Shown here piece after piece: positions 3,015 to 28,676 of a stretch of DNA of 64,000 nucleotides. A model generated the notes under the pieces. That model was given only the letters and a program-made list of their open reading frames with translations. It had not been told where the DNA came from and made no database searches. This DNA comes from Candidatus Margulisiibacteriota bacterium. GTDB lineage: Bacteria > Margulisbacteria > Marinamargulisbacteria > JBFWNS01. How positions within the stretch are numbered: position 1 is the stretch's first letter; the number at the start of each line of letters is the position of its first letter. The DNA lies in contig JBFWNS010000002.1 of assembly GCA_050250935.1 (NCBI GenBank), positions 199,793 to 263,792 on the forward strand. Direction: 5' to 3'. Both the position numbers and the translations under genes were made by a program.

Positions 3015-3245
3015 ATGAGCCCCAAAAAACCCACCTTTCGGAAAGGGAGCCTCTTTTTTCACAAAGACACCCACGACAAGGTGATGTTTGGCACATGGAT
3101 GGATGGAGACAGTGCCGTTCAATGTTTGCGCCTTAAAGACAAGTCGTTTATCACCGTCCCCATCGACGATTTTTTGGCCAACTATGTTTCTTATGCGGCC
3201 ATCGAAAAAGCCGCCAAAGACAAACGCCGAGGACAAGGGTGGTAG
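3015..3245 (+). CDS. Small hypothetical protein (76 aa)
   Basis: ORF starts 3 nt after the TerC stop and has no recognisable motif. Confidence 0.3.
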   Translation: MSPKKPTFRKGSLFFHKDTHDKVMFGTWMDGDSAVQCLRLKDKSFITVPIDDFLANYVSYAAIEKAAKDKRRGQGW

Positions 3246-3883
3246 GGTTTCGACTTGGGCTTGGGATCGGGATGTTGCTCTTAGCCTGCCTACCCGTGAT
3301 GGCCCAATCCCGAACCGAAATCGACTTTCAAATTCCGGTCTCGCCTTCCCAAGACCTTAAAACCCTCTGGCATCGCCTTCGTCAAACAGCGCTCGATGCC
3401 AAAGCTTCGGGCATTGGTGCCCAAAGGTCCGAGACCTTGTCTTACAGCCTGGCCACCTATTGCCTATCGCCAACCGGCACAATGAGTCTGAGTCTGCCCT
3501 TGCGACTAAATCGCCCAACCAGCTTGGCGTTTCTGACATTCGAAACCCCCGTTTCAGACACCACTGCCCTGCCCAAAGGCATTCAACACTATGCCTGCGA
3601 CGATGGTCTTCGGGTCCACCTCTCCCAAATTGTGGGGCCAGGCATGTTTTTGCAATGGCCTGCCATTTGTCCTTCGCCTTCGGTGGTCCAATATTCCGAA
3701 ATCAAACTGGGCGATGTGGCTTTCGATCCCGTGTTGTACATCTCGGTTTCATACAAAAAAATGGATTCTGAAACCTTCCTGCATTTCTATTACCGCCAAA
3801 AAGACGAACTTGCCCCAAGCCTTGCTGCTTTGGAAAAATGCCGCCAGTGGCGCCTGCTTCTGTCGAAAAAAGCCCCTTTTTAA
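3239..3883 (+). CDS. Secreted hypothetical protein
   Basis: N-terminal signal peptide (LLLACLPVMAQS); no recognisable domain. Confidence 0.4.
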   Translation: MVGFRLGLGIGMLLLACLPVMAQSRTEIDFQIPVSPSQDLKTLWHRLRQTALDAKASGIGAQRSETLSYSLATYCLSPTGTMSLSLPLRLNRPTSLAFLTFETPVSDTTALPKGIQHYACDDGLRVHLSQIVGPGMFLQWPAICPSPSVVQYSEIKLGDVAFDPVLYISVSYKKMDSETFLHFYYRQKDELAPSLAALEKCRQWRLLLSKKAPF

Positions 3884-3940
3884 TCGCCCAAAGCCAGGGT
3901 ATGATGGAAAAAAAACATCGCCCTCAAAAAGGACCTTCCC

Positions 3941-4303
3941 ATGTACAACCTCACAGTCACCAACGGCCAAGTCAGTTCTGAATCTGGATTCTATTTTATT
4001 GCAGCGCCTTTTACCCTCGAAGCCAATGGCCATCGCTATTCTGTCGATTTTAAGCGTGGCGCCAAAGACAAAGTGGCCTATATCCTTTCTGAAAATGGCA
4101 GCCCCATTACCGAGCTTTTTCATAACGACTATACCTTCGAAACGAGCCCAGAAGCAGTTCGTCCAGAGCTTCTTGCCGTGGCCTGTGCCTTTGTTAAATT
4201 GGGCATTACCACCGAAAAAAACCATGGCAAATACTTCAGCGACTCGGATCGCTTGGCTGGGGTTTCCTATACCATCACTCAACCCGACTTAATTTTGGCC
4301 TAA
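3941..4303 (+). CDS. Hypothetical protein (120 aa)
   Basis: Clean ORF with coding-like composition; no motif recognised. Confidence 0.4.
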   Translation: MYNLTVTNGQVSSESGFYFIAAPFTLEANGHRYSVDFKRGAKDKVAYILSENGSPITELFHNDYTFETSPEAVRPELLAVACAFVKLGITTEKNHGKYFSDSDRLAGVSYTITQPDLILA

Positions 4304-4401
4304 ATTTCAGCCTGAAATGAGCCCCGTTTCGGGTTTTACCTTGATGGATCGGGCTAGATTTAGCATAATGCCTCTATCCCCATTACAATCGAGGTGAGCC
4401 G

Positions 4402-5562
4402 ATGAATATCGCCATTTTTACAGATACGTATCATCCTCAGATCAACGGCGTCGTAACCAGCGTGGACACCTTTACACACGAATTCGAAAAAAATGGGCAT
4501 TCGGTTTTAATTGCCGGACCCAAAATGCCAGGCGGCAAGCGGTCTACTGCCAAAATCTGGCGGTTCAATTCCATGGTGTTTCCCTTTCAAAGAGAACACC
4601 GCGTCATTTGGCCCTATTCGCGAAAACTTTGCAAATTCAAAGACCTTAAAATCGATGTGATTCATGCGCAAACCCCCTTTTCTATGGGCTATTTGGCTTT
4701 GCATTTGGGCGCCAAATACAACATTCCGGTTGTGCATACCTATCACACTTTTTTTGCAGAATACCTTCACTATTTGCCCTTGCCCAATGTCCTGACCAAG
4801 GCCTATGCGGTGATGCAATCCCGCCGATTTTGCAACCGCTGCGACCAAGTGGTGGTACCGTCTCAGGCCATGAAAAACACCTTGAATAGCTATGGCATCA
4901 CCACGCCCATCGATGTGATTCCAACCGGTGTTGAAATCGACACCATCCCCTACAGCTCCCAGGCTTCGGCTTTTCGGGAAGCCCATCAGATTCCAGCCGA
5001 TAGACCCTTGTGTATTTTTGTGGGTCGGTTGGGCAAAGAAAAAAATGTTTATTTCCTGCTCGACGCTTTTCGCCAAGTGCTTAAAACCGTGCCCAATGCC
5101 CTGTTGTTGGTGGTGGGTGATGGCCCCGAATTAAAGGGGATGCGGCTTTGGGCCCACGAGCTGAAGCTGGACCAGTCCGTACGGTTTGTTGGCTATTTGC
5201 CCCGCAACGAGGTGTTTACAGCCTATGCCGCCAGTGATCTGATTTTGTTTCCCTCTAAAACCGAAACCCAAGGCTTAAGTTTGCTCGAAGGCCTCGCCAT
5301 GGGCAAACCCGCTGTTTGCCTGAACGCCATGGGAGTTAAAGATATTTTGGAAGGCAATGTGGGTGGCTTTTTGACCGAAGACCATTTGCCCGAATTTGTT
5401 GAAAAAGCCAGCGCTCTGCTTACAGATTCGGCCCTTTATACCCAAAAATCCCAAGAAGCCCGAACCCGGGCAGCCCAGTTTTCAGCAGCCTCGATGGCCG
5501 AAAAAATGATTGGGGTCTACGAATCCGCGATTGCTGCCCATAAAAAAGGAGAAAAACGATGA
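4402..5562 (+). CDS. Glycosyltransferase family 4 (GT1 fold)
   Basis: MNIAIFTDTYHPQINGV N-terminus and a C-terminal ExxxxxE-type GT4 region (FPSKTETQGLSLLEGLAMGKP). GAGGTGA RBS. Confidence 0.85.
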   Translation: MNIAIFTDTYHPQINGVVTSVDTFTHEFEKNGHSVLIAGPKMPGGKRSTAKIWRFNSMVFPFQREHRVIWPYSRKLCKFKDLKIDVIHAQTPFSMGYLALHLGAKYNIPVVHTYHTFFAEYLHYLPLPNVLTKAYAVMQSRRFCNRCDQVVVPSQAMKNTLNSYGITTPIDVIPTGVEIDTIPYSSQASAFREAHQIPADRPLCIFVGRLGKEKNVYFLLDAFRQVLKTVPNALLLVVGDGPELKGMRLWAHELKLDQSVRFVGYLPRNEVFTAYAASDLILFPSKTETQGLSLLEGLAMGKPAVCLNAMGVKDILEGNVGGFLTEDHLPEFVEKASALLTDSALYTQKSQEARTRAAQFSAASMAEKMIGVYESAIAAHKKGEKR

Positions 5563-7055
5563 ATTTACGTTGTACCACTGGCGATGCAGCCAGCAAAAAA
5601 ACCGATGTTTTAATTTTGCCATTTTTTGAGTCTGAAAAACCCAAAACCGGGGTCAAAAAAACCTTGGATCAAACACTCAAAAATCACCTGACCCAACTTA
5701 TCCAAACCAGGATTTTTGCAGGCAAACTGGGTCAAATTTGTGTGGTCCCAACTTTGGGACTGGCCCGGGCAAAGCAAGTGCTCTTGTTGGGCCTTGGCAA
5801 ACAAGGAGACCTCAGCCTCAACACCTTTCGCAATGCCGGTGGCGATTTGGCCCGAGCGTTGGAAAAACAAAAAGCCAAAACCGGGGTGCTAAGTCTGGAT
5901 GAAACCTCCCTTAAAAAATTCCCCCTTCCCGACATTGGTCAAGCCCTTGCAGAAGGATTGTTTTTGGGCCAATACCGCTTTAATACTTATTTAACCAACA
6001 GCAAAGACAGCCTATCCATCGACCTGCAATGGATGAGCCCTTCTAAAAAAACCACCACAGCCTTGTCCGAAAACTTGGATGTTGCCTTGGCCTTGGCCAG
6101 TGCCACCAACACGGCCAGAGATTTGGCCAACACCCCGCCCAACGACATGACACCCCGTATTTTTGTGGATTCTGTTCGCAATGTGTTTGCCGACTATCCC
6201 CACCTTAAACTCGAGGTTATCGACCGCAAAAAAGCCAAAGAATTGGGTATGGGTGCTTTCTTGGGCGTGGCCCAAGGCAGTGTGGAAGAGCCGTTTATGG
6301 CCATTTTGCGCTACATGCCCATTAAAAAACAGGCGCCAATTGCCCTCTTGGGCAAGGGCATTACCTTCGACACCGGTGGTATTTCCATTAAACCCGCCGC
6401 CAAAATGAGCGAAATGAAAGGCGACATGAGCGGGGCTGCTGCTGTGTTTGGCGCCATGAAGGCCATTGCCGAACTTCAACCTCAAGTCAACGTGATGGGG
6501 ATGATGGTTCTGGCCGAAAACATGCCTTCGGGTTCGGCCCAACGACCTGGGGATATCGTCAAAGCCATGAACGGCAAAACCATCGAAATTTTGAACACCG
6601 ACGCCGAAGGGCGATTGGTGCTGGCCGATGCCCTGTGTTACGCCGTCCAAGAAGGGGCCAAAACCCTGATCGACATCGCCACTTTAACCGGTGCGGCCTG
6701 TGTGGCCTTGGGCGAAATGGCCTCTGGGGTATTGGGCAACAACCAAGCCCTGATCAACCACCTAATTAAAATTGGAAACGCCAACGGCGACCGGCTGTGG
6801 CAACTACCTTTGTTCGACGAGTATTTGGATTATTTAAAATCTGAGGCCGCCGATTTGGCCAACTGCAGCGAAGGCCGCTATGGGGGTACTTGCTCGGCTG
6901 CCAAGTTTTTGGAGCAGTTTGTGGGCAAAACCCCTTGGGCCCATTTGGACATTGCCCCGATGATGCACTTTTCCAAAGCCACTGGCTATACCAGTAAAGG
7001 CATGTCTGGGGTCGGTGCCAGAACCTTGGCCACCTACGTTCTCGACCAGGCCTAG
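5559..7055 (+). CDS. pepA: Leucyl aminopeptidase (M17)
   Basis: NTDAEGRLVLADAL M17 signature and GKGITFDTGGISIKP motif; ATGA overlap with the upstream glycosyltransferase gene. Confidence 0.9.
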   Translation: MNLRCTTGDAASKKTDVLILPFFESEKPKTGVKKTLDQTLKNHLTQLIQTRIFAGKLGQICVVPTLGLARAKQVLLLGLGKQGDLSLNTFRNAGGDLARALEKQKAKTGVLSLDETSLKKFPLPDIGQALAEGLFLGQYRFNTYLTNSKDSLSIDLQWMSPSKKTTTALSENLDVALALASATNTARDLANTPPNDMTPRIFVDSVRNVFADYPHLKLEVIDRKKAKELGMGAFLGVAQGSVEEPFMAILRYMPIKKQAPIALLGKGITFDTGGISIKPAAKMSEMKGDMSGAAAVFGAMKAIAELQPQVNVMGMMVLAENMPSGSAQRPGDIVKAMNGKTIEILNTDAEGRLVLADALCYAVQEGAKTLIDIATLTGAACVALGEMASGVLGNNQALINHLIKIGNANGDRLWQLPLFDEYLDYLKSEAADLANCSEGRYGGTCSAAKFLEQFVGKTPWAHLDIAPMMHFSKATGYTSKGMSGVGARTLATYVLDQA

Positions 7056-7056
7056 G

Positions 7057-8157
7057 ATGTCGTGGGCGGAAGACCTTTCCCGGATTGATTCGGAGGGTTG
7101 CCGCCGTCGGCTGGGGTCGTTGAAGGGCGCTGTTGGGGCAGACTTTACCACCAACGATAGTTTGGGGCTGAGTACGCATCCGGCATTGCTCGAATCGGTG
7201 AAGGCCTCGTTTTCGAAAATGGGGGCAACAGGGTCTCGGTTGTTGGGTGGCGATAGCCCGACCCTTCGGGAACTCGAAGCAGCCCTGGCCCAGTGGTTGA
7301 GCATCGAATCGGCCCTGGTTTTTAATTCGGGCTATCATGCCAACACCGGCATTTTGCCGGCTTTGTATGGGCCAGGGGATGTCGTGTTTGCCGACCGCTT
7401 GTGTCATGCCAGTTTGTGGGATGGCATTGCCCTTTCCAAGGCCAGTTTACACCGGTTTGCCCACAACGATCTTACCCATTTGGAAACCTTGCTTAAAAAA
7501 CACCGTCCAAACGCCAAACGCGCCGTGATTGTGGCCGAAGCCTTGTTCAGCATGGACGGGGATTTTGCGCCTTTATCGGATTTGGTTCGGCTTAAACACC
7601 AGTTTGGGGCCGAACTCTATGTGGACGAAGCCCACAGCATTGGCGCCTATGGCCCCACCGGAAACGGCCTTGTAGGCCTTTTGGGATTGGAAAAAGACAT
7701 CGATTTTTGGGTGGGGACATTTGGAAAAGCCTTTGGTAGTTACGGGGCTTTTGTGGGCTGTGCGGACATCCTCAAACACCTGCTGATTAACAAAGCCCGG
7801 CCCTTTATTTTTTCGACAGCCCTACCCCAACCCGTCGTGGCTTGGAACCTGGCTGCAATCCACTTAATGCCCCATCTGCACAGCGAACGCCAGACCTTGC
7901 ACCGGCATAGTGCTCAGTTTCGGGATCATCTGCCGGGCACCCCAAGCACCTCGCACATTGTGCCGGTGATTACCGGGTCTGCAGCCAGCGCCCTGGCTTT
8001 GGCCGACCGTTTGCACACCGAGGGTTTTGCTGTAACGGCCATTCGTCACCCCACGGTTCCCAAGGGAACAGAACGGATTCGGCTATCGTTAACGGCGACC
8101 CACAGCCCAGACACCCTTCACCACCTGTTACACATCCTCTCGGAGACCCTAGCATGA
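7057..8157 (+). CDS. bioF: 8-amino-7-oxononanoate synthase (class II aminotransferase)
   Basis: Starts at ATG 7057, one nt after the pepA TAG. GYHANTGIL and SMDGD motifs and the PLP-lysine region TFGKAFG are typical BioF/KBL. Confidence 0.8.
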   Translation: MSWAEDLSRIDSEGCRRRLGSLKGAVGADFTTNDSLGLSTHPALLESVKASFSKMGATGSRLLGGDSPTLRELEAALAQWLSIESALVFNSGYHANTGILPALYGPGDVVFADRLCHASLWDGIALSKASLHRFAHNDLTHLETLLKKHRPNAKRAVIVAEALFSMDGDFAPLSDLVRLKHQFGAELYVDEAHSIGAYGPTGNGLVGLLGLEKDIDFWVGTFGKAFGSYGAFVGCADILKHLLINKARPFIFSTALPQPVVAWNLAAIHLMPHLHSERQTLHRHSAQFRDHLPGTPSTSHIVPVITGSAASALALADRLHTEGFAVTAIRHPTVPKGTERIRLSLTATHSPDTLHHLLHILSETLA

Positions 8158-8753
8158 CCACCCTGTATCTGCCCGGTTGGGCCACCTTGCCTACTTTGTT
8201 CCCTAACTATCACGACGCAAACACCGTTCACCTTCCCGGCCCGATGATGTCGTATTATCCCGAATTTTTCGACGCCATTGCCGAACCCCTGCATGTGGTG
8301 GGATTTTCGCTGGGCTGCTATTTGGCCCAGGATTTTTTTAGGGCTCACCCCAGCAAAGTTTTGTCGATGACCTTTCATGGGGCCCGCCCCCAGTATCCCG
8401 ATAGCGATGTTCAAGGTGTTCGCAAAGCGGTTTCCCAAACCCCATCCCGAACCCGAGCCTATCTGACCCAATTTTACAAAGCCTGTTTCACCAATCCCAT
8501 CGAGCACGCCCTGTTCAAAACAACCCTGGAAGCTTCGTTTTTAGACACCTTTACCCAACCCTTGCTAGAAGAAGGCCTGGACTATATTGCCACCTCTAAA
8601 TTGGACGGGGGTTTGCTTCAACAGGTTCCAAATTTAAGCATTTGTCACGGTCAAGAAGACGCCATTGCCCCGTTTTTTGAAACGGAAAACTTCTGCACGG
8701 AATTTTCCCTTCCCTTCTTCCCTCACCCTGGGGGGCATTCGATTCCAACTTAA
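8154..8753 (+). CDS. Alpha/beta-hydrolase esterase, putative pimeloyl-ACP methyl ester esterase (BioG/BioH-like)
   Basis: ATGA overlap with bioF; about 200 aa; nucleophile elbow GFSLG. Position and size are as for the DUF452/BioG class. Confidence 0.5.
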   Translation: MTTLYLPGWATLPTLFPNYHDANTVHLPGPMMSYYPEFFDAIAEPLHVVGFSLGCYLAQDFFRAHPSKVLSMTFHGARPQYPDSDVQGVRKAVSQTPSRTRAYLTQFYKACFTNPIEHALFKTTLEASFLDTFTQPLLEEGLDYIATSKLDGGLLQQVPNLSICHGQEDAIAPFFETENFCTEFSLPFFPHPGGHSIPT

Positions 8754-8815
8754 CCCAAGCCGCTGAAATTTTTGATGTGTTTTTTCGATAATTTTTTAAA
8801 ACACAAGGACTCAGG

Positions 8816-9838
8816 ATGTTATTTCAAAAATTTGTTTCACTGGCACACACTGAAGAAGACAGCGAAATAGGCTCCCCTGCCAAACGGGTACACCTAGACA
8901 CCCGGAAGCCCTCAGCGGAAATACAAACGGTTTGGATTCATACTGCTTTAGCCAACCATTTTGGCCTGGTTGAAAGGGCCCAAGACTGCCTTCGGAATCA
9001 GGACACTATTCGTGCCCGTATCGAGCAGTTTTACATTGATCCCGCCCGTTATGCCAATGAAACAATGCAAAAATTTTTGTCCTGTTGCCAATTTATCGTC
9101 GATTCTGGGCGGTTGCCGGTCTCCTCGAATCAACCTACAAAAACCCACTCCCCCGAAGATCAGGCTGCGAGTTGGCTCGGCCATTGTCTCTCAAATGCTC
9201 GCACTAACGCTAGCAACACAGCCACTGATGCGGTCAGTCGGTATTTGGTGGCGCAGCTCTTTGGAACCCATCAACCCTTTTTTATTCAAAACAGACTCCA
9301 AGACCTTCAATTTCTTTCAACCTTAAAATACGTGGACGATTGTATCCGACAACACAACCGGCTTCCCAACACAACAGAAGATTCTCCCGTCTACAAGGCC
9401 TATCAAAACATTTTTAACCACTACCCCAGAGGATTCCCACAAGACCTGCAACGCTTTGTTGACCATCTTTTTCCACCAGAACGCCTATTGCCCTATGTGC
9501 GCCCCACTGGCGATATGGCGCTTAATAAACTCTTTTCTGCCTTGATTGAGCATTTTCGATCCCATGGAAATGCGAACCCCTATTCTCACACCAAAAGTGA
9601 TAGCGAGCTTGTCCGTTGGTGGGAAGAGAAGTTCAGATCTGAGGGGAAAACAAGAAAACATTCTATTACCTCTCAGGCAGAAGCAAAAGTTAACCGTATT
9701 CTAGAGCTTAGAAAAGCCATTGCGACCCTTAAAGAAGGGGATTGGAATGACCAAGCCCTACACCTTGCCCAGCATATTGGGCTAATTGCCCCTCCAGCAC
9801 CTGCTCCAGCCGCCGCAGCACCAGCTGCCCAGGCTTAG
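8816..9838 (+). CDS. Hypothetical protein with Ala/Pro-rich C-terminal tail
   Basis: 340-aa ORF with AAGGAC RBS, ending APPAPAPAAAAPAAQA; no domain recognised. Confidence 0.5.
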   Translation: MLFQKFVSLAHTEEDSEIGSPAKRVHLDTRKPSAEIQTVWIHTALANHFGLVERAQDCLRNQDTIRARIEQFYIDPARYANETMQKFLSCCQFIVDSGRLPVSSNQPTKTHSPEDQAASWLGHCLSNARTNASNTATDAVSRYLVAQLFGTHQPFFIQNRLQDLQFLSTLKYVDDCIRQHNRLPNTTEDSPVYKAYQNIFNHYPRGFPQDLQRFVDHLFPPERLLPYVRPTGDMALNKLFSALIEHFRSHGNANPYSHTKSDSELVRWWEEKFRSEGKTRKHSITSQAEAKVNRILELRKAIATLKEGDWNDQALHLAQHIGLIAPPAPAPAAAAPAAQA

Positions 9839-19428: not shown

Positions 19429-21336
19429 TTAATCGGCAATAACAACAGGGCTTCGAAGCCGATACCGACTACTTTCCTCAGTAAACAACACGTTCGAACC
19501 TTGCCAGCACTGCCATTGTTCAAATTTAGCTTGAAGGGCATCTATAGCTCTACGCTTCTCTGATTCAAGTTCATCAGGCCGAATCTCAAAGTCGTCATCC
19601 CAAAGATGTCCAACGTCCCCAAAAAGCTCCGTATAACTTCGATGAAATTCAGCCATATGTTTATCGTGGGAATCTGCTAAATAATGCACAGCCTCTAGAA
19701 AACGTCTACCATAGGAAGTCACACCTGACGAATTCATTCTGATTTTTAAAAGATTGGGCTCATCGCTATCCCATTCTTTAGCCCCCCCCAAATCATTTAC
19801 CAAACAAATGGCTGTATTGATATTTGTATCCATAATTCCATATAAATGGGACTGTCTGAGTTTATCAGGAATCTGAATATTTAATAAAAATTCACCCAAA
19901 ACAAAAACGGTTGGAACTGCCCCGCTGGTTCTGCGATGATTCAAATACTGCTCAACCGGCGGTGCTTTTTCACGAATTTGCATTTCAGCAACAGCCGATT
20001 GAAAATATTGATTTGCTTTATCATAAAAAGCATTTAATAAATCCGAATCTACTTTTGTTGACTGTTGGTGCTGTCGTAAACGGCACCCAAAATCATAGAT
20101 GGCTCGGCCTAAAACTTTTGCCTGTTGCAGTTCCGATGAGGTTAAAACAGTTGACCAGTCATATTGGCGCTCATCTGCGCTATGAGCATCCGATCGGTCT
20201 AGTTCTTGTTCAAAATCTTCAAAGGTGTACTTTTCGTTTTTCAATAAACTCATTAACAGTCGGTTAAATGCTTGTAACAAGGGCTTATTCTCAAGCTTTC
20301 CAAATGTTGCGTCTTTTCTGTCGATCAAATCATCAAACAAAAATAAAATTAATACCCACATGGTATTAATTTTGTGTTTTTCAATATCTTTGGTTTGTAA
20401 AAGGGCATTAACCGCAAGCTCAATGAACTTACTGTTCTCAAAAGATCGAATAACATGATCACGATCTTGTTCATCACAGGCTTTTAACACGTCCCGGTAC
20501 CACACAAACATGTCTTCAATCACTTGTTGGATCAAGCCCGATTCATGCCGAGTTGGCTTTCTCCCAACCTGTAATTCAACAACCAAGGGCCTTCTGTTAA
20601 TCTCAAAGGACACATGAAACTTCTGGGTCACGCCCTGCTCAACGGTGGTGCTTGAAGCAACACATTCAACCCTCTCAGATGTTGGCTCAGGTAAAGTTTG
20701 GGCAGCAGCAGCAGCAGCAGACGCTCTTGCTCCATTTAAATCGGGAAAATTCGGGGGTACAGGTAGTCTTTGATCACCAAAAAAGGATGGGGGTCTTTTA
20801 ACGGGCACAAAATCTGGCTCTGAACCAATCTGAAAAGAATCATTGGAAACGGGTTTGATGGGTGGGGTTTCCGAACTATTAGGTCGGAAATTTGGACTTC
20901 GGCCTGGGGGTTCTTCGGATCCTGATGTTGGGGTTATGCTTCTGGGAAGTACCGTAATCACCTGTGTTGCAACTATTTTTATACTGACTCTTACTTCTTC
21001 AATTTTAAGAGGCTGACCGTCTACTGGTTTTGCGCCAGCAATCATGGCTTTAATCATGGCGCCTTTTTCTGTAGGCCCACTCTCTTTAGCCAAATGCAGA
21101 CCAATATCGTGTATAAGATCAAAAATTTGTACAGCGTTTGCTTCTGAAACCCCATCCCGTGTACTCTGCAAATATGGCAAAATATCTCTAACCGAGACTA
21201 CCGGCGTCCGATCCCCAAAAATTTCTGTAAACCTTGCCAATAGCGGTACTTCTGGTGCAACAGGCCTAGGCGGCTCGATTTGCCAAGCCATAGGTACTGC
21301 AATTTGTTTATGATGAAGTGGACAATATTTTTTCAT
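19429..21336 (-). CDS. Two-domain protein: N-terminal unknown/Pro-rich region plus C-terminal class-I terpene-synthase-like domain
   Basis: The sites that support the call are: LILFLFDDLID (DDxxD at aa 335-339); RR at 468-469, 46 aa before an NSE-like NDLGGAKE (514-521); and an RY pair 11 aa from the C-terminus. GAGG RBS upstream. Confidence 0.5.
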   Translation of the reverse strand: MKKYCPLHHKQIAVPMAWQIEPPRPVAPEVPLLARFTEIFGDRTPVVSVRDILPYLQSTRDGVSEANAVQIFDLIHDIGLHLAKESGPTEKGAMIKAMIAGAKPVDGQPLKIEEVRVSIKIVATQVITVLPRSITPTSGSEEPPGRSPNFRPNSSETPPIKPVSNDSFQIGSEPDFVPVKRPPSFFGDQRLPVPPNFPDLNGARASAAAAAAQTLPEPTSERVECVASSTTVEQGVTQKFHVSFEINRRPLVVELQVGRKPTRHESGLIQQVIEDMFVWYRDVLKACDEQDRDHVIRSFENSKFIELAVNALLQTKDIEKHKINTMWVLILFLFDDLIDRKDATFGKLENKPLLQAFNRLLMSLLKNEKYTFEDFEQELDRSDAHSADERQYDWSTVLTSSELQQAKVLGRAIYDFGCRLRQHQQSTKVDSDLLNAFYDKANQYFQSAVAEMQIREKAPPVEQYLNHRRTSGAVPTVFVLGEFLLNIQIPDKLRQSHLYGIMDTNINTAICLVNDLGGAKEWDSDEPNLLKIRMNSSGVTSYGRRFLEAVHYLADSHDKHMAEFHRSYTELFGDVGHLWDDDFEIRPDELESEKRRAIDALQAKFEQWQCWQGSNVLFTEESSRYRLRSPVVIAD

Positions 21337-21400: not shown

Positions 21401-21441
21401 AATTCTAAACCCATTCCCCCAAAAGTAAAAGATTTTTTTAT
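21401..21441. repeat. 41-bp conserved element, copy A (upstream of the terpene-synthase-like gene)
   Basis: aattctaaacccattcccccaaaagtaaaagatttttttat is identical to 22837-22877. Partial similarity extends about 20 bp further. Confidence 0.6.
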
Positions 21442-22757
21442 GTCAACTTCTGGTTGATTTGAAAAGTGACTTGAAAAGTTGTTCCAAGTCCCTGCTCTGT
21501 AGTAATGTGGAGTTTTCCTCCCTGCGCCGCCACAACCTCCTTAACAAACGTCAGTCCAAACCCCGAATTCCCAACCTTGGTACTAAACCCTTCCTCAAAA
21601 ATTTGATCCATAATCTCTGGGGCAATCCCTCCGGCATTATCCCGAAGTCCAAACAAAACCCCACCTTCCGTTCTTTTTGCCGAAAATTCTAGCTTGGTAG
21701 CCCCCGCTTGAATGGCGTTGACCATAAGATTGATGATGACGTTTTGAATTGCCCCTTCATGGCCATAAATAAGGGGAAGGTTCGATTCAAAATCCAACGT
21801 GGCTTGAACATTTTTTAGACAAAGATCTCCCTTTGACATGGTTAGCAAGGCTCGAACCATGGATTCCAATTCAAAAGTACTCGTTGCAGAAATGCTGAGG
21901 GAATTTTGGTGCAGAAGGGTTTCGACCAAATTATAGAGATTGGCGATAGTCCCTCTTAAGATGTTGGCTATTTTTTCGATATCATCTGGGCTTTTGGCGT
22001 ATTGAGACATAAGGTCGGGGACATTGGTCATCAAGCTGAGTGGATTTTTGATTTCGTGGGCAATGTGCTGGGTCATGGTGGCGAATTGGGCTTTTTGGGT
22101 TAAGGACTTATTGGTTTCCCAAAGTGTGGCGTGGGCAGATTGAAGTTGGGTGAGGGTCGTTTCAACTTGCTGTAAAGCTATTTGGAGGTTTTCTTCGTGA
22201 TATTCATTGAGTGCAATATAATAACGGAGGGTTAAGAATACCATGCTAAAAGCAACTGCTAGGCTTAAAAAAGACAGTGAAAAAGAAGCTGTTGTTGAGA
22301 TCTGGACCGATGAAATTTTATGGGAATACAAAGGCCACAATTGTAATAAAACCATGGTTGAGAAAGGAATAGTAAAAGCTACAATTTGAAGTATTTTTTC
22401 TCTGGGGCTAAACAAAGCCAAAGAAACGGCTGCAATAACAACAGCAACAATTTGAATACCTGCCTTTGGACCTAAAATAAATGCAAAGGTAAGAATAGCC
22501 AGGCAAGTTGAAAAAACAATTGCGAGCTTTCCTAGCTTGATAAAGCCTTTGGAAATAAAAGTATAGGAACTTAGAAATAAAAGGACAAAAGGAATCACCA
22601 AAAGCGCTAATCTAGGGAACCCTAAAAACAAAAATAAGAGACTATAAGGAACCCCAGCGGCGGAACCCACTAAAATTAATGTATTGGCCAAATACAGGCG
22701 CCTTTTTTCGGGTTGCTGAATAAAACTAGAGCCCGTTTCTAGTATTTTTGTAAGCAA
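21438..22757 (-). CDS. Membrane sensor histidine kinase (paralog of 18118-19419)
   Basis: Same architecture as the downstream kinase: multi-TM N-terminus, H-box IAHEIKNPLSLM and HATPase_c motifs. Confidence 0.85.
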   Translation of the reverse strand: MLTKILETGSSFIQQPEKRRLYLANTLILVGSAAGVPYSLLFLFLGFPRLALLVIPFVLLFLSSYTFISKGFIKLGKLAIVFSTCLAILTFAFILGPKAGIQIVAVVIAAVSLALFSPREKILQIVAFTIPFSTMVLLQLWPLYSHKISSVQISTTASFSLSFLSLAVAFSMVFLTLRYYIALNEYHEENLQIALQQVETTLTQLQSAHATLWETNKSLTQKAQFATMTQHIAHEIKNPLSLMTNVPDLMSQYAKSPDDIEKIANILRGTIANLYNLVETLLHQNSLSISATSTFELESMVRALLTMSKGDLCLKNVQATLDFESNLPLIYGHEGAIQNVIINLMVNAIQAGATKLEFSAKRTEGGVLFGLRDNAGGIAPEIMDQIFEEGFSTKVGNSGFGLTFVKEVVAAQGGKLHITTEQGLGTTFQVTFQINQKLT

Positions 22758-23018: not shown

Positions 23019-24137
23019 TTACTTTAATAAGGCCAAAACCGCCGCTTCCAAGGTGGGGTATTTTACAAATTCTGGCCAGAGGTCTTCCATGCCCTGGGGT
23101 TTGGGGGCGGAAGGAAAAAAAGATTTAAATACCGAAGGGCGAATGGGCAGGTGTTTTTCTAGGGCTTCTTTGGCATAGTTGGCAAACAAGGCAAAGCGGT
23201 TTTGGAAGGGAAGATCGCCACTGGCGTTTTCAAGGTCATAACAGTGGACCAGATCGTGAATTTTTTGGTTGATGGTTTCGGGATGGGCCGATTTGTTTAG
23301 ATAGTCCCGAACCCCGCGTTCAAATCCGGTTTTGGCAACAGGGGTATCTTCGTAGGCGGTCAGCATCAGAATCATGGCTTTCGGGGCCAGTTTTTTGATT
23401 TCGGGGATTAAGTCGTGGCCTTTTTTACCTGGCAATTCCACATCCAAAACCACCACGGCAACGTCTTTGTTTTGGGCCAAAATTTCCAGGGCTTCGTCGG
23501 CCTCTTTGGCATCCAAAATGGTATAGATTTTTTCCAAAGACAACCGAAACGCTTCGGCGATAAAGGCTTGGTCGTCAATAACCAAGACCTTCTGTTTTTG
23601 GGGCCTAAAAAAAGCTTCGGGCAAACTTAAATGCACCCCAAATTCGACTTCGTTTCCTTTTAACTTCATCCATTCCGCTTCCAAATTCGCCTGCACCAAC
23701 AACCGGGTTTCTTCGAGGGGGCCATCGGGCTTAAACTGTTGGGCGGCATAGCGCTTTAACGATTCTGTGGCATAGTTGGCGAAGGTGGTTTTGCAAAATT
23801 CCAGCAAGGGTTTATCGAAGGCATCGAAGACAAAAACCCCGCCCAAACGCATCAGGCGGACGGTGGCGTTATGATGGGTAATGCCCACAATCATGACGGG
23901 GATGTGGGAATAGGTGATTTGGATGTCTTGAACGGCACTTTCGAGTTCGGACAAAGAGAATCCGCCACAATCAATGACAACCACAGAAAACGAGGTGTTT
24001 TCGAAGCTTAAATCAGAAATCAATTCCTCTTGGTTTGAAAACCATCGGGACGAGACTTGATCGGCAAAAAAAGCCTCGAAAAACGCAACCCGTGTCGGGT
24101 CTTCGGACAAAATATAAGCAATAAAATTAGAATCCAT
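23019..24137 (-). CDS. Response regulator with tandem receiver domains (first degenerate) and C-terminal domain of unknown function, no DNA-binding output
   Basis: Second REC is canonical: KVLVIDDQ...VVVLDVELPG...ILMLTA...K. The first is a pseudo-receiver. 14 bp downstream of the glyS stop. Confidence 0.7.
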   Translation of the reverse strand: MDSNFIAYILSEDPTRVAFFEAFFADQVSSRWFSNQEELISDLSFENTSFSVVVIDCGGFSLSELESAVQDIQITYSHIPVMIVGITHHNATVRLMRLGGVFVFDAFDKPLLEFCKTTFANYATESLKRYAAQQFKPDGPLEETRLLVQANLEAEWMKLKGNEVEFGVHLSLPEAFFRPQKQKVLVIDDQAFIAEAFRLSLEKIYTILDAKEADEALEILAQNKDVAVVVLDVELPGKKGHDLIPEIKKLAPKAMILMLTAYEDTPVAKTGFERGVRDYLNKSAHPETINQKIHDLVHCYDLENASGDLPFQNRFALFANYAKEALEKHLPIRPSVFKSFFPSAPKPQGMEDLWPEFVKYPTLEAAVLALLK

Positions 24138-24151
24138 CCCCGACTGCCCCC

Positions 24152-26179
24152 TTACACCACAATTTTTTCGAAATCTCCAATAGACTTAAACAACCCATTA
24201 ATTTGAGACAAAAACGCCAAGCGGTTGGCTCGAATTCCCTCGTCTGGGTCCATGACCATAACCTGATCAAAATAGGTGGTTAGGGTTGGGATGAGGGTTT
24301 GAACCATCGGCTTGTAGTGGTCGATGACGGTCTGCGGGGTAACCCCAGCTGGAAACAGGGCTTTGAAAGCATCCAAAGCCACCCCTTCTTGAGCGTCTTT
24401 AAACAAACGGGGCTCCACTGCCGATACCGCTTCCGATTTTACCAATCGGGCGACCCGAACCCCCAGATCCACCCAGGCTTTAAAATGGGGCTCTTGGCGG
24501 CGGGCTTTTAAGAAGGTCAAAGCAGCCAGTTGTTGGCTGGGTTTTCCAGCAAAATTAGCCATAACAGCATCGACCAAATCGTAGTCGAATCCGCGCAGCT
24601 CTTTAAAAAACAAACTGACCCGCTGTTTGAAAAAATCCAAACAGTCTTTTTTTCCTGTTTGGGTTTGGAGGCCCTCAAAGGCAGCATCCAGACCCTCGGT
24701 TAAAGAAAAGGAAGTCCAGTCGGGCAAGGTTAAATTCATTTCCAAAATCGCATTGGCCATCCGACGAATGCTCCAGGGATCTTGAGAGCCGGTTGGAATC
24801 AGTCCGTTTACAAAACAGGCTGCAATTGTGTCCAACCGATCGGCGATGCCAACCACAGACCCCGCAAGGGTTGTAGGCAAGCTATCCCCAGCAAATCGGG
24901 GCAGATAGTGCTCTTCGATGCCCAAGGAAACGGGCTCGGGCAGCCGGTGATACCGGGCATAAACCGCCCCCATTTTGCCTTGAAGCTCTGGCAATTCGTA
25001 GACCATTTGGGTGGTTAAATCAGACTTGGACAACCGGGCAATGATTTCGATATTGGGGTCTGTTTTTCCAATAAACGAAGCCAACTGGATCGACAGGCGC
25101 TGAATTCGCGCCACTTTGTCGGCCAAGGTTCCCAACCCTTTTTGGAAGACCACGGTTTTTAATTTTTCGGCGTGTTGGTCCAGGGTTTGTTTGATGTCTT
25201 CTTCGTAAAAAAACCGTACATCGTCCAAACGGGCCACCAAAACTTGGCGGTTGCCTTTTCGAATATTGGCCTCGCTTTTGGGGGTGACATTTTCGGCCAC
25301 CACGGCAAAGGAATGGGTTAATTGACCGTTGTTGAGAATGGGAAAGTATTTTTGATGCTTTTTCATACAGGCAATTAAAGCCTGTTGGGGCAGGCGTAAA
25401 AAGTCGTCGGGAAACGATTCGACCAGCACCGTTGGCCATTCGCACAAATAGGTGACTTCTTCGAGCAAGCCTTCGTCGGATTGGGCGCCATGGGTTTCCA
25501 GTGCTTTGCGAATCGCCTGCTTGCGTTTGGCGGGGTCTACTACCACATGGGCATTTTCCAGAATCGTTTCGAATTGGGTGGCTTCTGGGACTGGAATGGG
25601 CTGATGATCGGCTAAAAACCGGTGCCCCCAAGTCTCGGGTTTGCTTTGAATGCCATACAAATTCAGAGGAATAGCGGTGTTGCCATGCAAACAAAGCACC
25701 CAATGCACGGGCCGAATAAAGGCCTTGCTTTCGTGCCCCCATTTCATGGCAATGGGCAAGGGCAAATTGGCCACAACCGATTCCAACAGTTCGGGCAAGA
25801 CTTGAACAGCAGGCGCAACCGATTCGTCGCGATAGGCCACCACATAGGATTTCCCTTGCTCTTCTTCAACAACGAAAGCATCGGGATCGATTCCGGCTTT
25901 TTTGGCAAAGCCAATGGCCGGGGCAAGCCATTCGCCGTTGGTGCCTTTGGCTGCGGCCAATTGTGGGCCACGCAATCGGGTTTTTCCGCCGGTTTGCTCG
26001 GTGGCCAAGTTGGCCATCAGAACAAAACGTCTGTAGGTTCCCAAGGTTCGGACCTCGGTTGCAGCCAATCGGTGGCTGGCAAAGGCCGTCTCGGCTGCCG
26101 TTTTTAGTTGGTTTAAAAAGTCTGTCATAAAGCGGGCGGGAACCTCTTCCACACCCAGCTCGAATACAAATGGCCTCAT
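24152..26179 (-). CDS. glyS: Glycine--tRNA ligase beta subunit
   Basis: [19 protein letters not shown]-terminus and overall GlyS-beta length. The start was chosen at M13 of the track ORF, giving an ATGA overlap with the upstream ATPase stop. Confidence 0.9.
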   Translation of the reverse strand: MRPFVFELGVEEVPARFMTDFLNQLKTAAETAFASHRLAATEVRTLGTYRRFVLMANLATEQTGGKTRLRGPQLAAAKGTNGEWLAPAIGFAKKAGIDPDAFVVEEEQGKSYVVAYRDESVAPAVQVLPELLESVVANLPLPIAMKWGHESKAFIRPVHWVLCLHGNTAIPLNLYGIQSKPETWGHRFLADHQPIPVPEATQFETILENAHVVVDPAKRKQAIRKALETHGAQSDEGLLEEVTYLCEWPTVLVESFPDDFLRLPQQALIACMKKHQKYFPILNNGQLTHSFAVVAENVTPKSEANIRKGNRQVLVARLDDVRFFYEEDIKQTLDQHAEKLKTVVFQKGLGTLADKVARIQRLSIQLASFIGKTDPNIEIIARLSKSDLTTQMVYELPELQGKMGAVYARYHRLPEPVSLGIEEHYLPRFAGDSLPTTLAGSVVGIADRLDTIAACFVNGLIPTGSQDPWSIRRMANAILEMNLTLPDWTSFSLTEGLDAAFEGLQTQTGKKDCLDFFKQRVSLFFKELRGFDYDLVDAVMANFAGKPSQQLAALTFLKARRQEPHFKAWVDLGVRVARLVKSEAVSAVEPRLFKDAQEGVALDAFKALFPAGVTPQTVIDHYKPMVQTLIPTLTTYFDQVMVMDPDEGIRANRLAFLSQINGLFKSIGDFEKIVV

Positions 26180-27297
26180 GGTTTGGATCCTTCTTGCGCT
26201 TTGGCTTTCAAACACACCACCCCACCCTCTGTGCGTTTGAACAACACGAGATTTTCGAGTTCAAATTCCCCAATCAAAACGGGATTTTGGACATCCAAGA
26301 TCACCTGGGTCTGCTCGCTGGCAGCCAAAAACAGCCGATGCAACTGAGGCAAAAGACTGGCGTGAAGGCCAGCATCGGGAAACTTAATGCCCATGACGGT
26401 CGGTTTTTGGGGATGCAAACACAACACCACCCAGCACAAAAATCGGACCCAAGCATCGGACCATTCGTAGATGGGCAACTTCACCGAAACCTCTTGGACA
26501 GAGGCCAAAACCATGCACTCTCGACTTAGGCCTTTTTGATTGACGGTTAAGGACAGAATCGCAGGAAAAGCGGTTTTGAGTTCCGCTTCGATGGCCTGAA
26601 ACACGGTTGGGTTTTTGTGTTGTAATTCGTAAAGCAGGCTCGGCAAATTCGAGGCATCTTCGGCCAAAAAAGTGTCTTTTCCGGCGTCTCCCACATCCAT
26701 AAACCGTTTGGCAAAGAGGGTTTCTGCCTTGTACAAGCGCCATCCCGAAATAAAGTGCTTAACACTGGCAATCACACCCAAGCTGGGGTCTTTGATCTGG
26801 GCCAGCCCCAGGCTGTTGGGCTCTCGGGTTCGAAACGTGTGTTTAATTCCCCAATGACTGACCGTGCCTTGGGTATTTTTTCGCTCGGGATCGTCGGCAA
26901 TGCCCTCTTGGTTTTTCACTTGCATGAAGTCGAAACTGTGGTTTGGCGCCGTGCCTTTGATGCGTTCGGACACCACGGCCAACCGTTGCAAAGGACCTTT
27001 AAGCTCGCCTTGGTAAAACAAGTACGATTCGAGTTTGGCATCGGCCTCGATTTTAAGGCTCCATAACAGGGACGATTGGGCATTGAAAAACACCTTGGTC
27101 CCCACATGGGTTGCCCATAATTCGGGGGTCATTTGGCCTTCGTTTAGGCTGTCTCTGAGGGCGGACAAAAATCCAAACACCGACGACTTGCCCACCCCAT
27201 TTTCGCCCAAAAAAACCGAAAGTCGGTTCAAAGGAACGGTGATGTCGTCGAACAGGCGATAGCCCTGCAACCGAATGGATTTGATTATGGATTTCAC
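26176..27297 (-). CDS. SMC/ABC-like P-loop ATPase (AAA_21/RecF-like fold) inserted between glyQ and glyS
   Basis: [14 protein letters not shown]...GENGVGKSS Walker A at the N-terminus and a C-terminal [15 protein letters not shown]-loop-like region. ATGA overlaps at both ends. Confidence 0.65.
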
Positions 27298-28154
27298 TCG
27301 GGCTCCTTGATGTACAACTCGGCACAGCCTCGGGCCAGTTTTCGAATGCGCAGAATGGTAGCCGTTCTTTCGGAAACTGAAATGGCGCCTCGGGCATCCA
27401 ATAAATTAAAGGTATGCGAGCATTTTAAGCACCAATCATAGGCCGGAATGGCCAATCCAGCTGCCAAGACCCGCTGGGTTTCAGCCTCGTAAAGGGCAAA
27501 CAATTGAAAAAGCATCTCGGTGGATGCCTCTGTAAAATTATAATGACAATTTTCGATTTCAGACTGCTTGTAAATGTCCCCATAGGTGACGATCTTGTCT
27601 TTGTGGGTTTGCCACACCAAATCGTAGACCGTTGGTTTTTGTTGAATAAACATGGCCAAGCGTTCTAGCCCATAGGTAATTTCAACCGAAATGGGGTTCA
27701 CATCCACCCCGCCGCATTGTTGGAAATAGGTAAATTGGGTCACTTCCATGCCATTTAGCCAGACTTCCCAGCCCACACCCCAAGCACCAAGGGTTGGCGA
27801 TTCCCAGTTGTCTTCGACAAACCGAATGTCGTGTTCTTCGGGAATAATCCCCAACCCGCGCAAACTGTTTAAATAGAGTTCTTGGACGTTCAGCGGCGAA
27901 GGCTTCAAAATCACTTGAAATTGAAAATAGTGTTGAAGGCGATTGGGGTTTTCGGCATATCGACCATCGGTGGGACGGCGGCAGGGTTCGACATAGGCCA
28001 CGTTCCAATCGCTGGGACCCAAGACCCTTAAAAAAGTGTGGGGGCTCATCGTGCCAGCCCCTTTTTCAGTGTCATAGGGGTTTAAAATCAGACACCCTTG
28101 TTCGTCCCAATATCGCTGTAAATTAAAAATGATTTCTTGAAAAGTAAGTGCCAC
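27294..28154 (-). CDS. glyQ: Glycine--tRNA ligase alpha subunit
   Basis: [21 protein letters not shown]...[15 protein letters not shown] is canonical GlyQ. Confidence 0.95.
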
Positions 28155-28676
28155 TTATCGTCTCCGTTGGATGTTTCGAATCAGCGTCATTTCGATTTCT
28201 CGTTGGACGGCTTTGATAAAAGACAAGCGCTTGTCGATGGGATCGACCAAAACAGTATGAGCCCGAACCCAACGCCCCAAGATGACATCGGTTAGCAGTT
28301 GATCGCCGACGACCACCGATTTTTCCAAATCGATGCCCTTTTCCCCAGCCAATTCTTGAAGGGCATAGACAAAGGGCTTCCAGGCCCGGTAAACACCGGT
28401 CACTTCGGCTTGTTTGCAGAACCGCTCGATGCGGCGTTGACTGCGGTTATTGGACACAAAAAACACCTCGAAGCCCAGGGCTTTGGCCTTGGACAACCAG
28501 TTGAGTTTTTGCAGGGATAAATTGCGCTCTTTAAGGGAAACCAGGGTGTTGTCGATATCCAAAAACAACGCCCGATACCCTTTGGCAATCAGGGCCTCCA
28601 GTTGAATATCTTCCACCCGCTCCAAAATTTCGCTGGGGCTTAGCAACTCGTAAACCACGGTTTTAAGCGACTTCAT
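28155..28676 (-). CDS. HAD-superfamily phosphatase (YqeG / subfamily IIIA-like)
   Basis: DxDxT motif in LFLDIDNTLV; small HAD core of about 170 aa. Confidence 0.7.
   Translation of the reverse strand: MKSLKTVVYELLSPSEILERVEDIQLEALIAKGYRALFLDIDNTLVSLKERNLSLQKLNWLSKAKALGFEVFFVSNNRSQRRIERFCKQAEVTGVYRAWKPFVYALQELAGEKGIDLEKSVVVGDQLLTDVILGRWVRAHTVLVDPIDKRLSFIKAVQREIEMTLIRNIQRRR

Follow-up and report, generated by a model that had tools for sequence, protein, structure and literature searches.

A putative orphaned pseudo-ATPase of a defence-module family between glyQ and glyS in one Candidatus Margulisiibacteriota genome

How did a gene for a P-loop ATPase come to stand between the two subunit genes of an essential aminoacyl-tRNA synthetase (aaRS), and does its product still do anything there? 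The question is raised by a stretch of 64,000 nt from the metagenome-assembled genome (MAG) of a Candidatus Margulisiibacteriota bacterium (the window, to whose positions the coordinates given for this genome refer), in which glyQ and glyS, encoding the alpha and beta subunits of glycyl-tRNA synthetase (GlyRS), are both complete, on the same strand and in canonical order, with a 1122-nt open reading frame (ORF) between them. The ORF list gives this gene as 373 codons on the minus strand, with GENGVGKSS in the N-terminal region of the product. A preliminary description of the locus, made from the letters of the sequence, proposed a non-hydrolysing or regulatory ATPase of the SMC/RecF/AAA_21 type, obligatorily co-translated with GlyRS and perhaps belonging to phage defence. 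Our own reading, to which we give about an even chance, is that the gene is the orphaned and catalytically disabled ATPase half of a module made of an ATP-binding cassette (ABC) ATPase and a DUF4276/Toprim nuclease, and that it has been retained as a pseudo-ATPase in the GlyRS operon.

The profile searches that the preliminary description called for place the protein in the group that it had named. Two Pfam models score above their cut-offs, AAA_21 (PF13304; 37.7 bits, cut-off 27) and AAA_15 (PF13175; 34.6 bits, cut-off 32.1), although these are weak matches for the family, whose intact members reach 90-127 bits. The best match among the PADLOC models is HEC-01A (PDLC04175, E 1e-35, residues 3-362), and nine HEC-01A models match at E < 1e-13. 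HEC-01 (Hma-embedded candidate 01; PADLOC-DB) consists of an ABC ATPase, HEC-01A, and a Toprim-like DUF4276 protein, HEC-01B. When 1.84 billion representatives were searched exhaustively with HMMER, 3768 relatives came up, none of them more than 34% identical to the query (the best homologue is 33-34% identical), and among 5.8 billion clusters there is no homologue above 34% identity save an identical copy. An AlphaFold2 (AF2) model built with 64 homologues has a mean predicted local distance difference test score (pLDDT) of 91.5 and a predicted template modelling score (pTM) of 0.91; this confidence is driven by the family alignment, and the fold is a prediction only. The top Foldseek matches to the model are PtuA, Rad50 and SMC heads (E 1e-10 to 1e-13, template modelling (TM) score ~0.5), none of them a close solved structure for the family. 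Run against the sequences of solved structures, a profile made from family alignment A2 recovers OLD, GajA and AriA (E 1e-13 to 1e-22), and the nearest solved proteins by sequence profile are OLD, PtuA, GajA and AriA. Judged by these profiles, the protein is an ABC-type ATPase of the AAA_21/AAA_15 (SMC/Rad50/OLD-like) group and is HEC-01A-like.

A phage origin was considered and rejected, as IMG/VR holds no relatives of the ATPase. Homologues were also seen on 102 plasmids, mostly conjugative enterobacterial ones, at 25% identity and annotated only as 'AAA family ATPase'; on the E. coli plasmid NZ_CP067268.1 (L172, 4707-5795) an IS26 copy stands at the expected position of the partner gene. 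We regard the plasmid homologues as uninformative, given the low identity, the bare annotation and the truncation of the inspected locus downstream by IS26.

The homologues show what the gene would normally be accompanied by. A metagenome scan with alignment A3 yielded 84 homologue loci, in 76 of which a downstream partner could be judged, and 68 of these 76 carry a DUF4276 gene directly downstream on the same strand. This holds for P0004, P0006 and P0003, the closest homologues whose contigs extend far enough, in which DUF4276 follows immediately and often overlaps, and the downstream partners match PADLOC HEC-01B. DUF4276 is a Toprim-superfamily domain whose homologues have been named Mad4 (PMC12065111). 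Neither tblastn nor hidden Markov model (HMM) searches found DUF4276 anywhere in the 64-kb window, and the locus itself has no room for a partner gene, since the ATPase overlaps glyQ and glyS at its two ends. The earlier idea of a stand-alone phage-defence ATPase thus holds for the defence-module family and fails for the stand-alone state, because in this family two genes normally make up the module, of which the window has an orphaned remnant. In the family identity and the orphan status of the gene we place high confidence.

Some members with altered motifs occur in other contexts. A member with a DDPS Walker B and a Gln in the H-loop (L117, 2760-4963) and one with a 'DA' Walker B (P0038/L171, 1418-4384) both lack DUF4276 and have unrelated ORFs in its place, a 307-aa ORF and a VWA-domain protein, respectively, which hints at partner swapping within the ATPase family. 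Members with an altered Walker B do not form a recurrent orphan class; this was rejected because their contexts differ (DUF4276 is present beside P0152 and absent beside P0038).

To assess the catalytic state of the protein, we compared its motifs with those of the family in 152 sequences, the query and its homologues (positions in Table 1). Walker A is intact. In the ABC signature, which the preliminary description had failed to recognise, a degenerate form of the family motif is present: S280 is kept (Ser in 148/152), whereas position 282 is Ala in place of the Gly found in 147/152. Position 305 of Walker B is Asp or Glu in 146 of the 152 sequences and Lys in the query only; the next position, 306, is the catalytic Glu in 146/152 and Phe in the query. 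The segment VILDV, formerly taken for a Walker B without its Glu, is instead the strand leading to the H-loop (family QVxxTTHS), and the true Walker B aligns to VMGIKFPD. At the H-loop itself the query has Val at position 336 (Thr in 146/152) and Gln at position 337, where the family has 87 His and 60 Gln, so that the Gln is not unusual. The family-specific N217-L218 and S280 positions are retained, while the conserved tail at the C-terminus, some 35 residues long (...DFG...LHRSDELE), is absent, the ORF ending at the glyS start. Because the Walker B Asp has become Lys, the catalytic Glu Phe and the signature Gly Ala, hydrolysis is very unlikely, and we are fairly confident from the aligned residues that the protein does not hydrolyse ATP. 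The proposal of a non-hydrolysing ATPase therefore stands, on other residues (K305, F306 and A282) than those on which it had been based.

A catalytically dead protein can be a decaying relic or one whose fold still matters, and these should differ in where conservation has been lost. We took the columns conserved in at least 50% of 141 full-length homologues and compared the query with the consensus. The query keeps 11 of the 26 catalytic-motif columns of the C-lobe, where 20.7 are expected (P about 5e-6). Outside the motifs it keeps 45 of 75 columns against 49.1 expected (P 0.19), and in Walker A it keeps 6 of 8 against 6.9 (P 0.31). Only one truncated fragment among the homologues retains fewer motif positions than the query. 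Uniform neutral drift able to erase half of the motif positions would also erode the columns outside the motifs and bring stop codons; neither is seen, and the pattern therefore favours constraint on the fold with catalysis released. We lean slightly towards a fold that is still under selection, as far as the sequence can tell, and, codon usage being native as well, we think a retained pseudo-ATPase that would bind nucleotide or serve as a scaffold more likely than a relic in mere decay. In a neighbour-joining (NJ) tree the query forms a deep, solitary branch with a root-to-tip distance of 0.461 against a median of 0.397; this is only modestly longer, and accelerated evolution of the ATPase is not demonstrated.

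The arrangement of the GlyRS genes in relatives shows what the locus looked like before the insertion. In all Margulisiibacteria-type relatives glyS directly follows glyQ, and the ATPase is absent from the 8/8 closest glyQS loci. In L006, L007, L013, L087 and L088 the end of glyQ and the beginning of glyS overlap by 4 nt (ATGA-type), and in L005 by 8 nt. Among 83 other glyS loci that were fetched, none carries the ATPase or DUF4276 (0/83, HMM searches included). The insertion is therefore not universal in the clade, and it is as unusual as had been supposed. Because all relatives examined have glyQ directly before glyS, the insertion is lineage-specific; it lies exactly in the ancestral coupling junction, with a 4-nt overlap preserved on each side. 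The closest glyS to that of the host is 42% identical, and the host lineage is a singleton. A search around the insert for target-site duplications or terminal repeats gave only short repeats at chance level. The glyQ tail in the window is 5-9 aa shorter than in relatives; the idea that the last residues of the ATPase are a relic of the original glyQ tail was dropped, as the similar AAGGA-containing junctions lie in different reading frames.

The junctions themselves are of a kind common in the window (Table 1). The preliminary description had ATGA at both; this is correct for ATPase/glyS, and the glyQ/ATPase junction reads GTGA. Around the perfect Shine-Dalgarno sequence of the ATPase the minus strand reads ATCAAGGAGCCCGAGTGAAATCC, and around that of glyS it reads CAAGAAGGATCCAAACCATGAGG. 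The glyS start at ATG 26179 is backed by N-terminal alignment with relatives (aligned against MSTYLLEIGCEEIPA), and the alternative in-frame start upstream, GTG 26215, would lengthen the overlap and not abolish it. A 4-nt overlap is the commonest same-strand junction in the window (6-7/30 pairs), so that the overlaps at the two ends of the ATPase represent normal operon architecture here. They suggest translational coupling from glyQ through the ATPase to glyS; since the ATPase and glyS each have their own Shine-Dalgarno sequence, obligate co-translation with GlyRS was an overstatement. The glyQ product spans positions 1-276 of the 278 of the tRNA-synt_2e profile with its residues 5-284, and is 70-75% identical to glyQ of Margulisiibacteria-type relatives.

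These genes belong to a minus-strand run in the order hisZ, hisG, a HAD-phosphatase-like gene, glyQ, the ATPase, glyS and a response-regulator gene, joined by overlaps or by gaps of at most 14 nt. No promoter-like site was found on the minus strand near the ATPase ORF, and terminator-like sites inside it are weak and not meaningfully above expectation. A promoter or terminator of the ATPase's own was accordingly rejected.

Table 1. Features of the glyQ-ATPase-glyS locus in the window and of the GlyRS-adjacent module at locus L098 (the latter in positions of its own contig)
Feature	Position	Strand	Evidence and remarks
hisZ	29293..30171	-	Pfam tRNA-synt_His
hisG	28673..29353	-	Pfam HisG
HAD/PGP-phosphatase-like gene	28155..28676	-	Pfam Hydrolase_like/PGP_phosphatase; abuts glyQ
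glyQ (GlyRS alpha subunit, 286 aa)	27294..28154	-	Pfam tRNA-synt_2e, E 1.2e-144; GTG start
Shine-Dalgarno AAGGAG	27303..27308	-	In glyQ 3' end, 5 nt before ATPase GTG; read from sequence
ATPase ORF, HEC-01A/MAD3-like	26176..27297	-	GTG start 27297..27295, overlapping glyQ TGA 27296..27294; TGA stop 26178..26176
Walker A GENGVGKSS (residues 31-39), intact	27181..27207	-	G31, N33, G36, K37 invariant in alignments A1 and A2
Degenerate ABC signature WSDA (residues 279-282; family LSDG)	26452..26463	-	Family alignment
Dead Walker B VMGIKFPD (residues 301-308; family hhhhDEPE)	26374..26397	-	Family alignment
H-loop region DVQN (residues 335-338; family [AST]T[HQ]S)	26284..26295	-	Family alignment
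Shine-Dalgarno AAGGA	26188..26192	-	In ATPase 3' end, 8 nt before glyS ATG; read from sequence
glyS (GlyRS beta subunit, 675 aa)	24152..26179	-	Pfam tRNA_synt_2f, E 3.8e-166, profile 1-536 of 536; ATG 26179..26177, overlapping ATPase TGA 26178..26176
Response-regulator gene, last of run	23019..24137	-	Pfam Response_reg, E 1.6e-20; 14 nt 3' of glyS
L098 recO	3175-3966		
L098 ATPase, intact	3968-5167		Walker B VDEPD, tail present
L098 DUF4276	5164-5808		
L098 fused glyQS, 1006 aa	5801-8821		

Upstream of this run, at 30404-31134 on the minus strand, lies a pair of genes that looks like a toxin-antitoxin system of the MNT/HEPN type, a nucleotidyltransferase (Polbeta/NTP_transf_2, 103 aa) and an NTase_sub_bind HEPN-like protein (140 aa) overlapping by 4 nt, which is adjoined by a tRNA-Leu gene (30209-30294, plus strand). 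Elsewhere in the window, a minus-strand gene at 19429-21336 encodes a 635-aa protein with a C-terminal metal-binding domain of terpene synthase family 2 (E 5e-21), and a histidine kinase gene (21438-22757) adjoins it.

The locus is present in an independent assembly, and its composition is that of the host. In the Logan assembly of SRR27751816 the stretch from hisZ to the response regulator recurs at 100% identity on a contig of 7396 bp, and a deposited protein, 'MAG: AAA family ATPase [Candidatus Margulisiibacteriota bacterium]', is 100% identical to the ATPase. The guanine-plus-cytosine (GC) content of the gene (0.504) and of its third codon positions (GC3, 0.60) is like that of the neighbouring genes, the values for the three codon positions being 0.54/0.38/0.60, and its codon-usage distance ranks 15th of 47 window genes. 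The identical Logan contig and the native GC and codon usage make both an assembly artefact and a very recent acquisition from a donor of different composition unlikely.

The most atypical codon usage among the 47 genes is that of a large serine recombinase gene (60121-61695, minus strand), which slightly overlaps the 3' end of a tmRNA gene (59753-60132, plus strand), and of the HEPN/MerR-HTH gene that comes after it (61692-62402). The region 59753-62402 is probably a mobile element integrated at the tmRNA site.

A second module of this type next to GlyRS bears on whether the position has a meaning. On the metagenome contig Ga0315279_10001393 (L098, span 3175-8821), from an unrelated host, an intact HEC-01-type module stands between recO and a fused glyQS gene, with successive gaps or overlaps of 1, 4 and 8 nt from recO through the ATPase and DUF4276 to glyQS. 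The L098 ATPase belongs to a tight clade, 65-71% identical within, whose other members do not lie beside GlyRS. The ATPases of the window and of L098 are not sister sequences, and the two GlyRS-adjacent insertions are for that reason independent. GlyRS is a neighbour in only 1/84 homologue loci, and the 114 genes that flank the modules fall into 107 Pfam families (DNA methylases, BrxL, HEPN and many housekeeping families). Two of the 114 are aaRS genes, glyQS in L098 and a convergent pheT in L133, against about one expected. At L133 (Ga0315277_10000019, 4001-8212) about 20 nt separate the end of the ATPase and DUF4276 module from the 3' end of pheT (beta subunit of phenylalanyl-tRNA synthetase, 800 aa). 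The diverse neighbours, with two aaRS genes among 114, do not support the idea that the module family goes with aaRS genes in general. By our estimate, one GlyRS neighbour would turn up among 114 slots with a probability of about 0.03-0.07. The L098 module may be beside GlyRS by coincidence, and its position is suggestive of a link at best.

Four other explanations have to be set against a retained pseudo-ATPase. One is an assembly or binning artefact, in which a misassembly joined the ATPase gene to glyQ and glyS; the source is a MAG and the gene lacks close relatives, but the identical 7.4-kb contig in Logan, the precise 4-nt overlaps with Shine-Dalgarno sequences at both junctions and the match of GC and codon usage with the flanks make this extremely improbable. 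The gene may otherwise be a functionless passenger, its frame open only because a nonsense mutation, a frameshift or an imprecise deletion would be polar on the essential glyS, while missense changes drift. Such an account fits the loss of the catalytic residues, the tail and the partner, the singleton status of the gene without an orthologue, and the overlap kept at both junctions, as relatives have it directly between glyQ and glyS. Free missense drift, however, should erode the columns outside the motifs as much as those within them, which is not what the conservation test gave. In codon-position GC and codon usage the gene resembles ordinary genes of the host, and with an AAGGA sequence of its own glyS may not need the coupling. 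Polarity on glyS explains the open frame, yet not the normal conservation outside the motifs, and we regard a mere passenger as unlikely, if well worth keeping in mind.

The other two explanations give the protein a definite task. It could still be a defence component that works with a nuclease or effector encoded elsewhere and uses ATP binding without hydrolysis as a switch. The family is associated with defence (HEC-01A, with MAD3, AriA, PtuA and GajA as relatives), trigger recognition by AriA in PARIS needs the Walker A lysine and hence ATP binding (PMC11464382), Walker A is intact here, and some members with an altered catalytic Glu keep their DUF4276 partner (P0152). Against this, the partner that is immediately downstream in 68/76 loci is absent from the 64 kb around this gene, the C-terminal tail of partner-bearing homologues is missing, no other member has Lys in place of the Walker B Asp followed by a residue that is not acidic, and even the reference HEC-01 did not protect against phage when tested (bioRxiv 10.1101/2024.01.29.577857); we find a surviving defence role improbable. 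A still smaller chance goes to an accessory of GlyRS or its tRNA, that is, an ATPase exapted to act on or with GlyRS or tRNA-Gly, which would explain stoichiometric co-translation. The exact placement between glyQ and glyS with coupling-type overlaps argues for it, as does the independent event in L098, where the module abuts recO and overlaps the fused glyQS by 8 nt; by analogy, the related ABC ATPase/Toprim system PARIS acts on tRNA (PMC11464382). The family is nevertheless absent from the 83 other glyS loci, GlyRS adjoins only one of the 84 homologue loci without any enrichment of aaRS genes, and the protein has no sequence feature for binding tRNA or GlyRS. More speculative by a shade is a specific form of this idea, in which the pseudo-ATPase was exapted for a reason connected with GlyRS or tRNA-Gly, as a non-hydrolysing guard or decoy against tRNA-targeting Toprim (DUF4276-type) nucleases or as a sensor of translation status, and in which L098 would mark a recurrent functional link.

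Several points weigh against the reading that we prefer, a disabled ATPase retained for its fold. The Lys at the Walker B Asp position may abolish the binding of Mg-ATP altogether, and the DUF4276 partner may sit elsewhere in the genome, outside the window. The argument for constraint on the fold compares one sequence with a family set that was picked by similarity to that same sequence, which is an ascertainment bias, and the high pLDDT, coming from the family alignment, is no proof that the query sequence folds. The gene also lacks an orthologue, the best homologue being 33-34% identical when the closest glyS of the host is 42% identical. Since there is no orthologue and the sole other copy is 100% identical, the ratio of nonsynonymous to synonymous substitution rates (dN/dS), the age of the insertion and the conservation of the arrangement are not measurable.

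If a retained pseudo-ATPase is nevertheless what the locus encodes, the gene would have originated as the ATPase of the HEC-01 candidate module, related to MAD3-MAD4 of the methylation-associated defence system (MADS) and lying within the OLD-like AAA_15/21 group. In one Margulisiibacteriota lineage it came to lie between glyQ and glyS, which in the ancestral state overlapped by 4 nt (ATGA). There it would be co-transcribed with the GlyRS genes and translated from its own Shine-Dalgarno sequence within the 4-nt overlap chain glyQ-ATPase-glyS. The product would still fold as an ABC ATPase with an intact P-loop, and would at most bind nucleotide, without hydrolysis, no longer serving in an ATPase-gated nuclease defence module.

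This would provide a natural example of a defence ATPase that has lost its nuclease and its catalytic residues and yet kept its fold, locked into an essential coupled operon, and it would suggest how fragments of defence modules may become fixed and perhaps repurposed. The locus also shows that a further ORF can be accommodated at the ancestral junction coupling glyQ to glyS, provided that the chain of overlaps is kept. Known from a single genome, it is a curiosity, and nothing as yet points to a new system; its practical value is limited by the single uncultured genome, the lack of orthologues and an unvalidated parent system, HEC-01.

Among known systems HEC-01 is the closest. The window ATPase matches HEC-01A best, shares its ABC fold and the N217-L218 and S280 positions, and has homologues whose partners match HEC-01B. 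It differs in having no HEC-01B, in carrying KF for DE in Walker B, in lacking the signature Gly and the tail, and in standing in a housekeeping aaRS operon and not in a defence system. The reference HEC-01 is itself only a candidate, for which the published assay showed no phage protection (bioRxiv 10.1101/2024.01.29.577857). The likeness to MADS is partial. The NCBIfam equivalog model for MAD3 (NF047739, antiphage_MADS3) matches the C-terminal half of the protein (residues 205-361 only; E 3.5e-20), with 72.6 bits against a cut-off of 420, so that the protein is not an equivalog, and no methyltransferase, other MADS gene or MAD4 is nearby; the intact L098 homologue matches PADLOC mad3 at E 6e-16.

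The family belongs to the same superfamily of ABC ATPases (AAA_15/21) as the ATPases of PARIS (AriA, with the nuclease AriB), OLD and Gabija (GajA) and follows the same logic, an ATPase paired with a Toprim nuclease, and the tree of AAA15/21 defence ATPases in the PARIS paper takes in DUF4276-associated proteins (PMC11464382). The family's partner, however, is DUF4276 and not DUF4435 or Toprim_OLD, and the window locus has no nuclease. No profile of PARIS AriA, Gabija GajA or Septu PtuA matches over the full length, the PADLOC matches of these types being confined to the P-loop region (residues 3-49) or to short C-terminal stretches (E 1e-6 to 1e-10), and the neighbours are glyQ and glyS in place of AriB, GajB or PtuB. 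By structure, the top Foldseek matches (E about 1e-12, probability 1.0) are PtuA proteins, both that of Septu and those serving as effectors in type I-A retrons (for example 9nnb, 9e90 and 8eea), with which the model shares the ABC head; the TM score is only ~0.5 with 11-14% identity, and PtuA pairs with the HNH nuclease PtuB. As for the alpha2beta2 glyQS operon, the parting of its subunit genes was not seen in 83 other loci, whereas the window keeps both genes complete and in the canonical order with a 1.1-kb foreign ORF between them.

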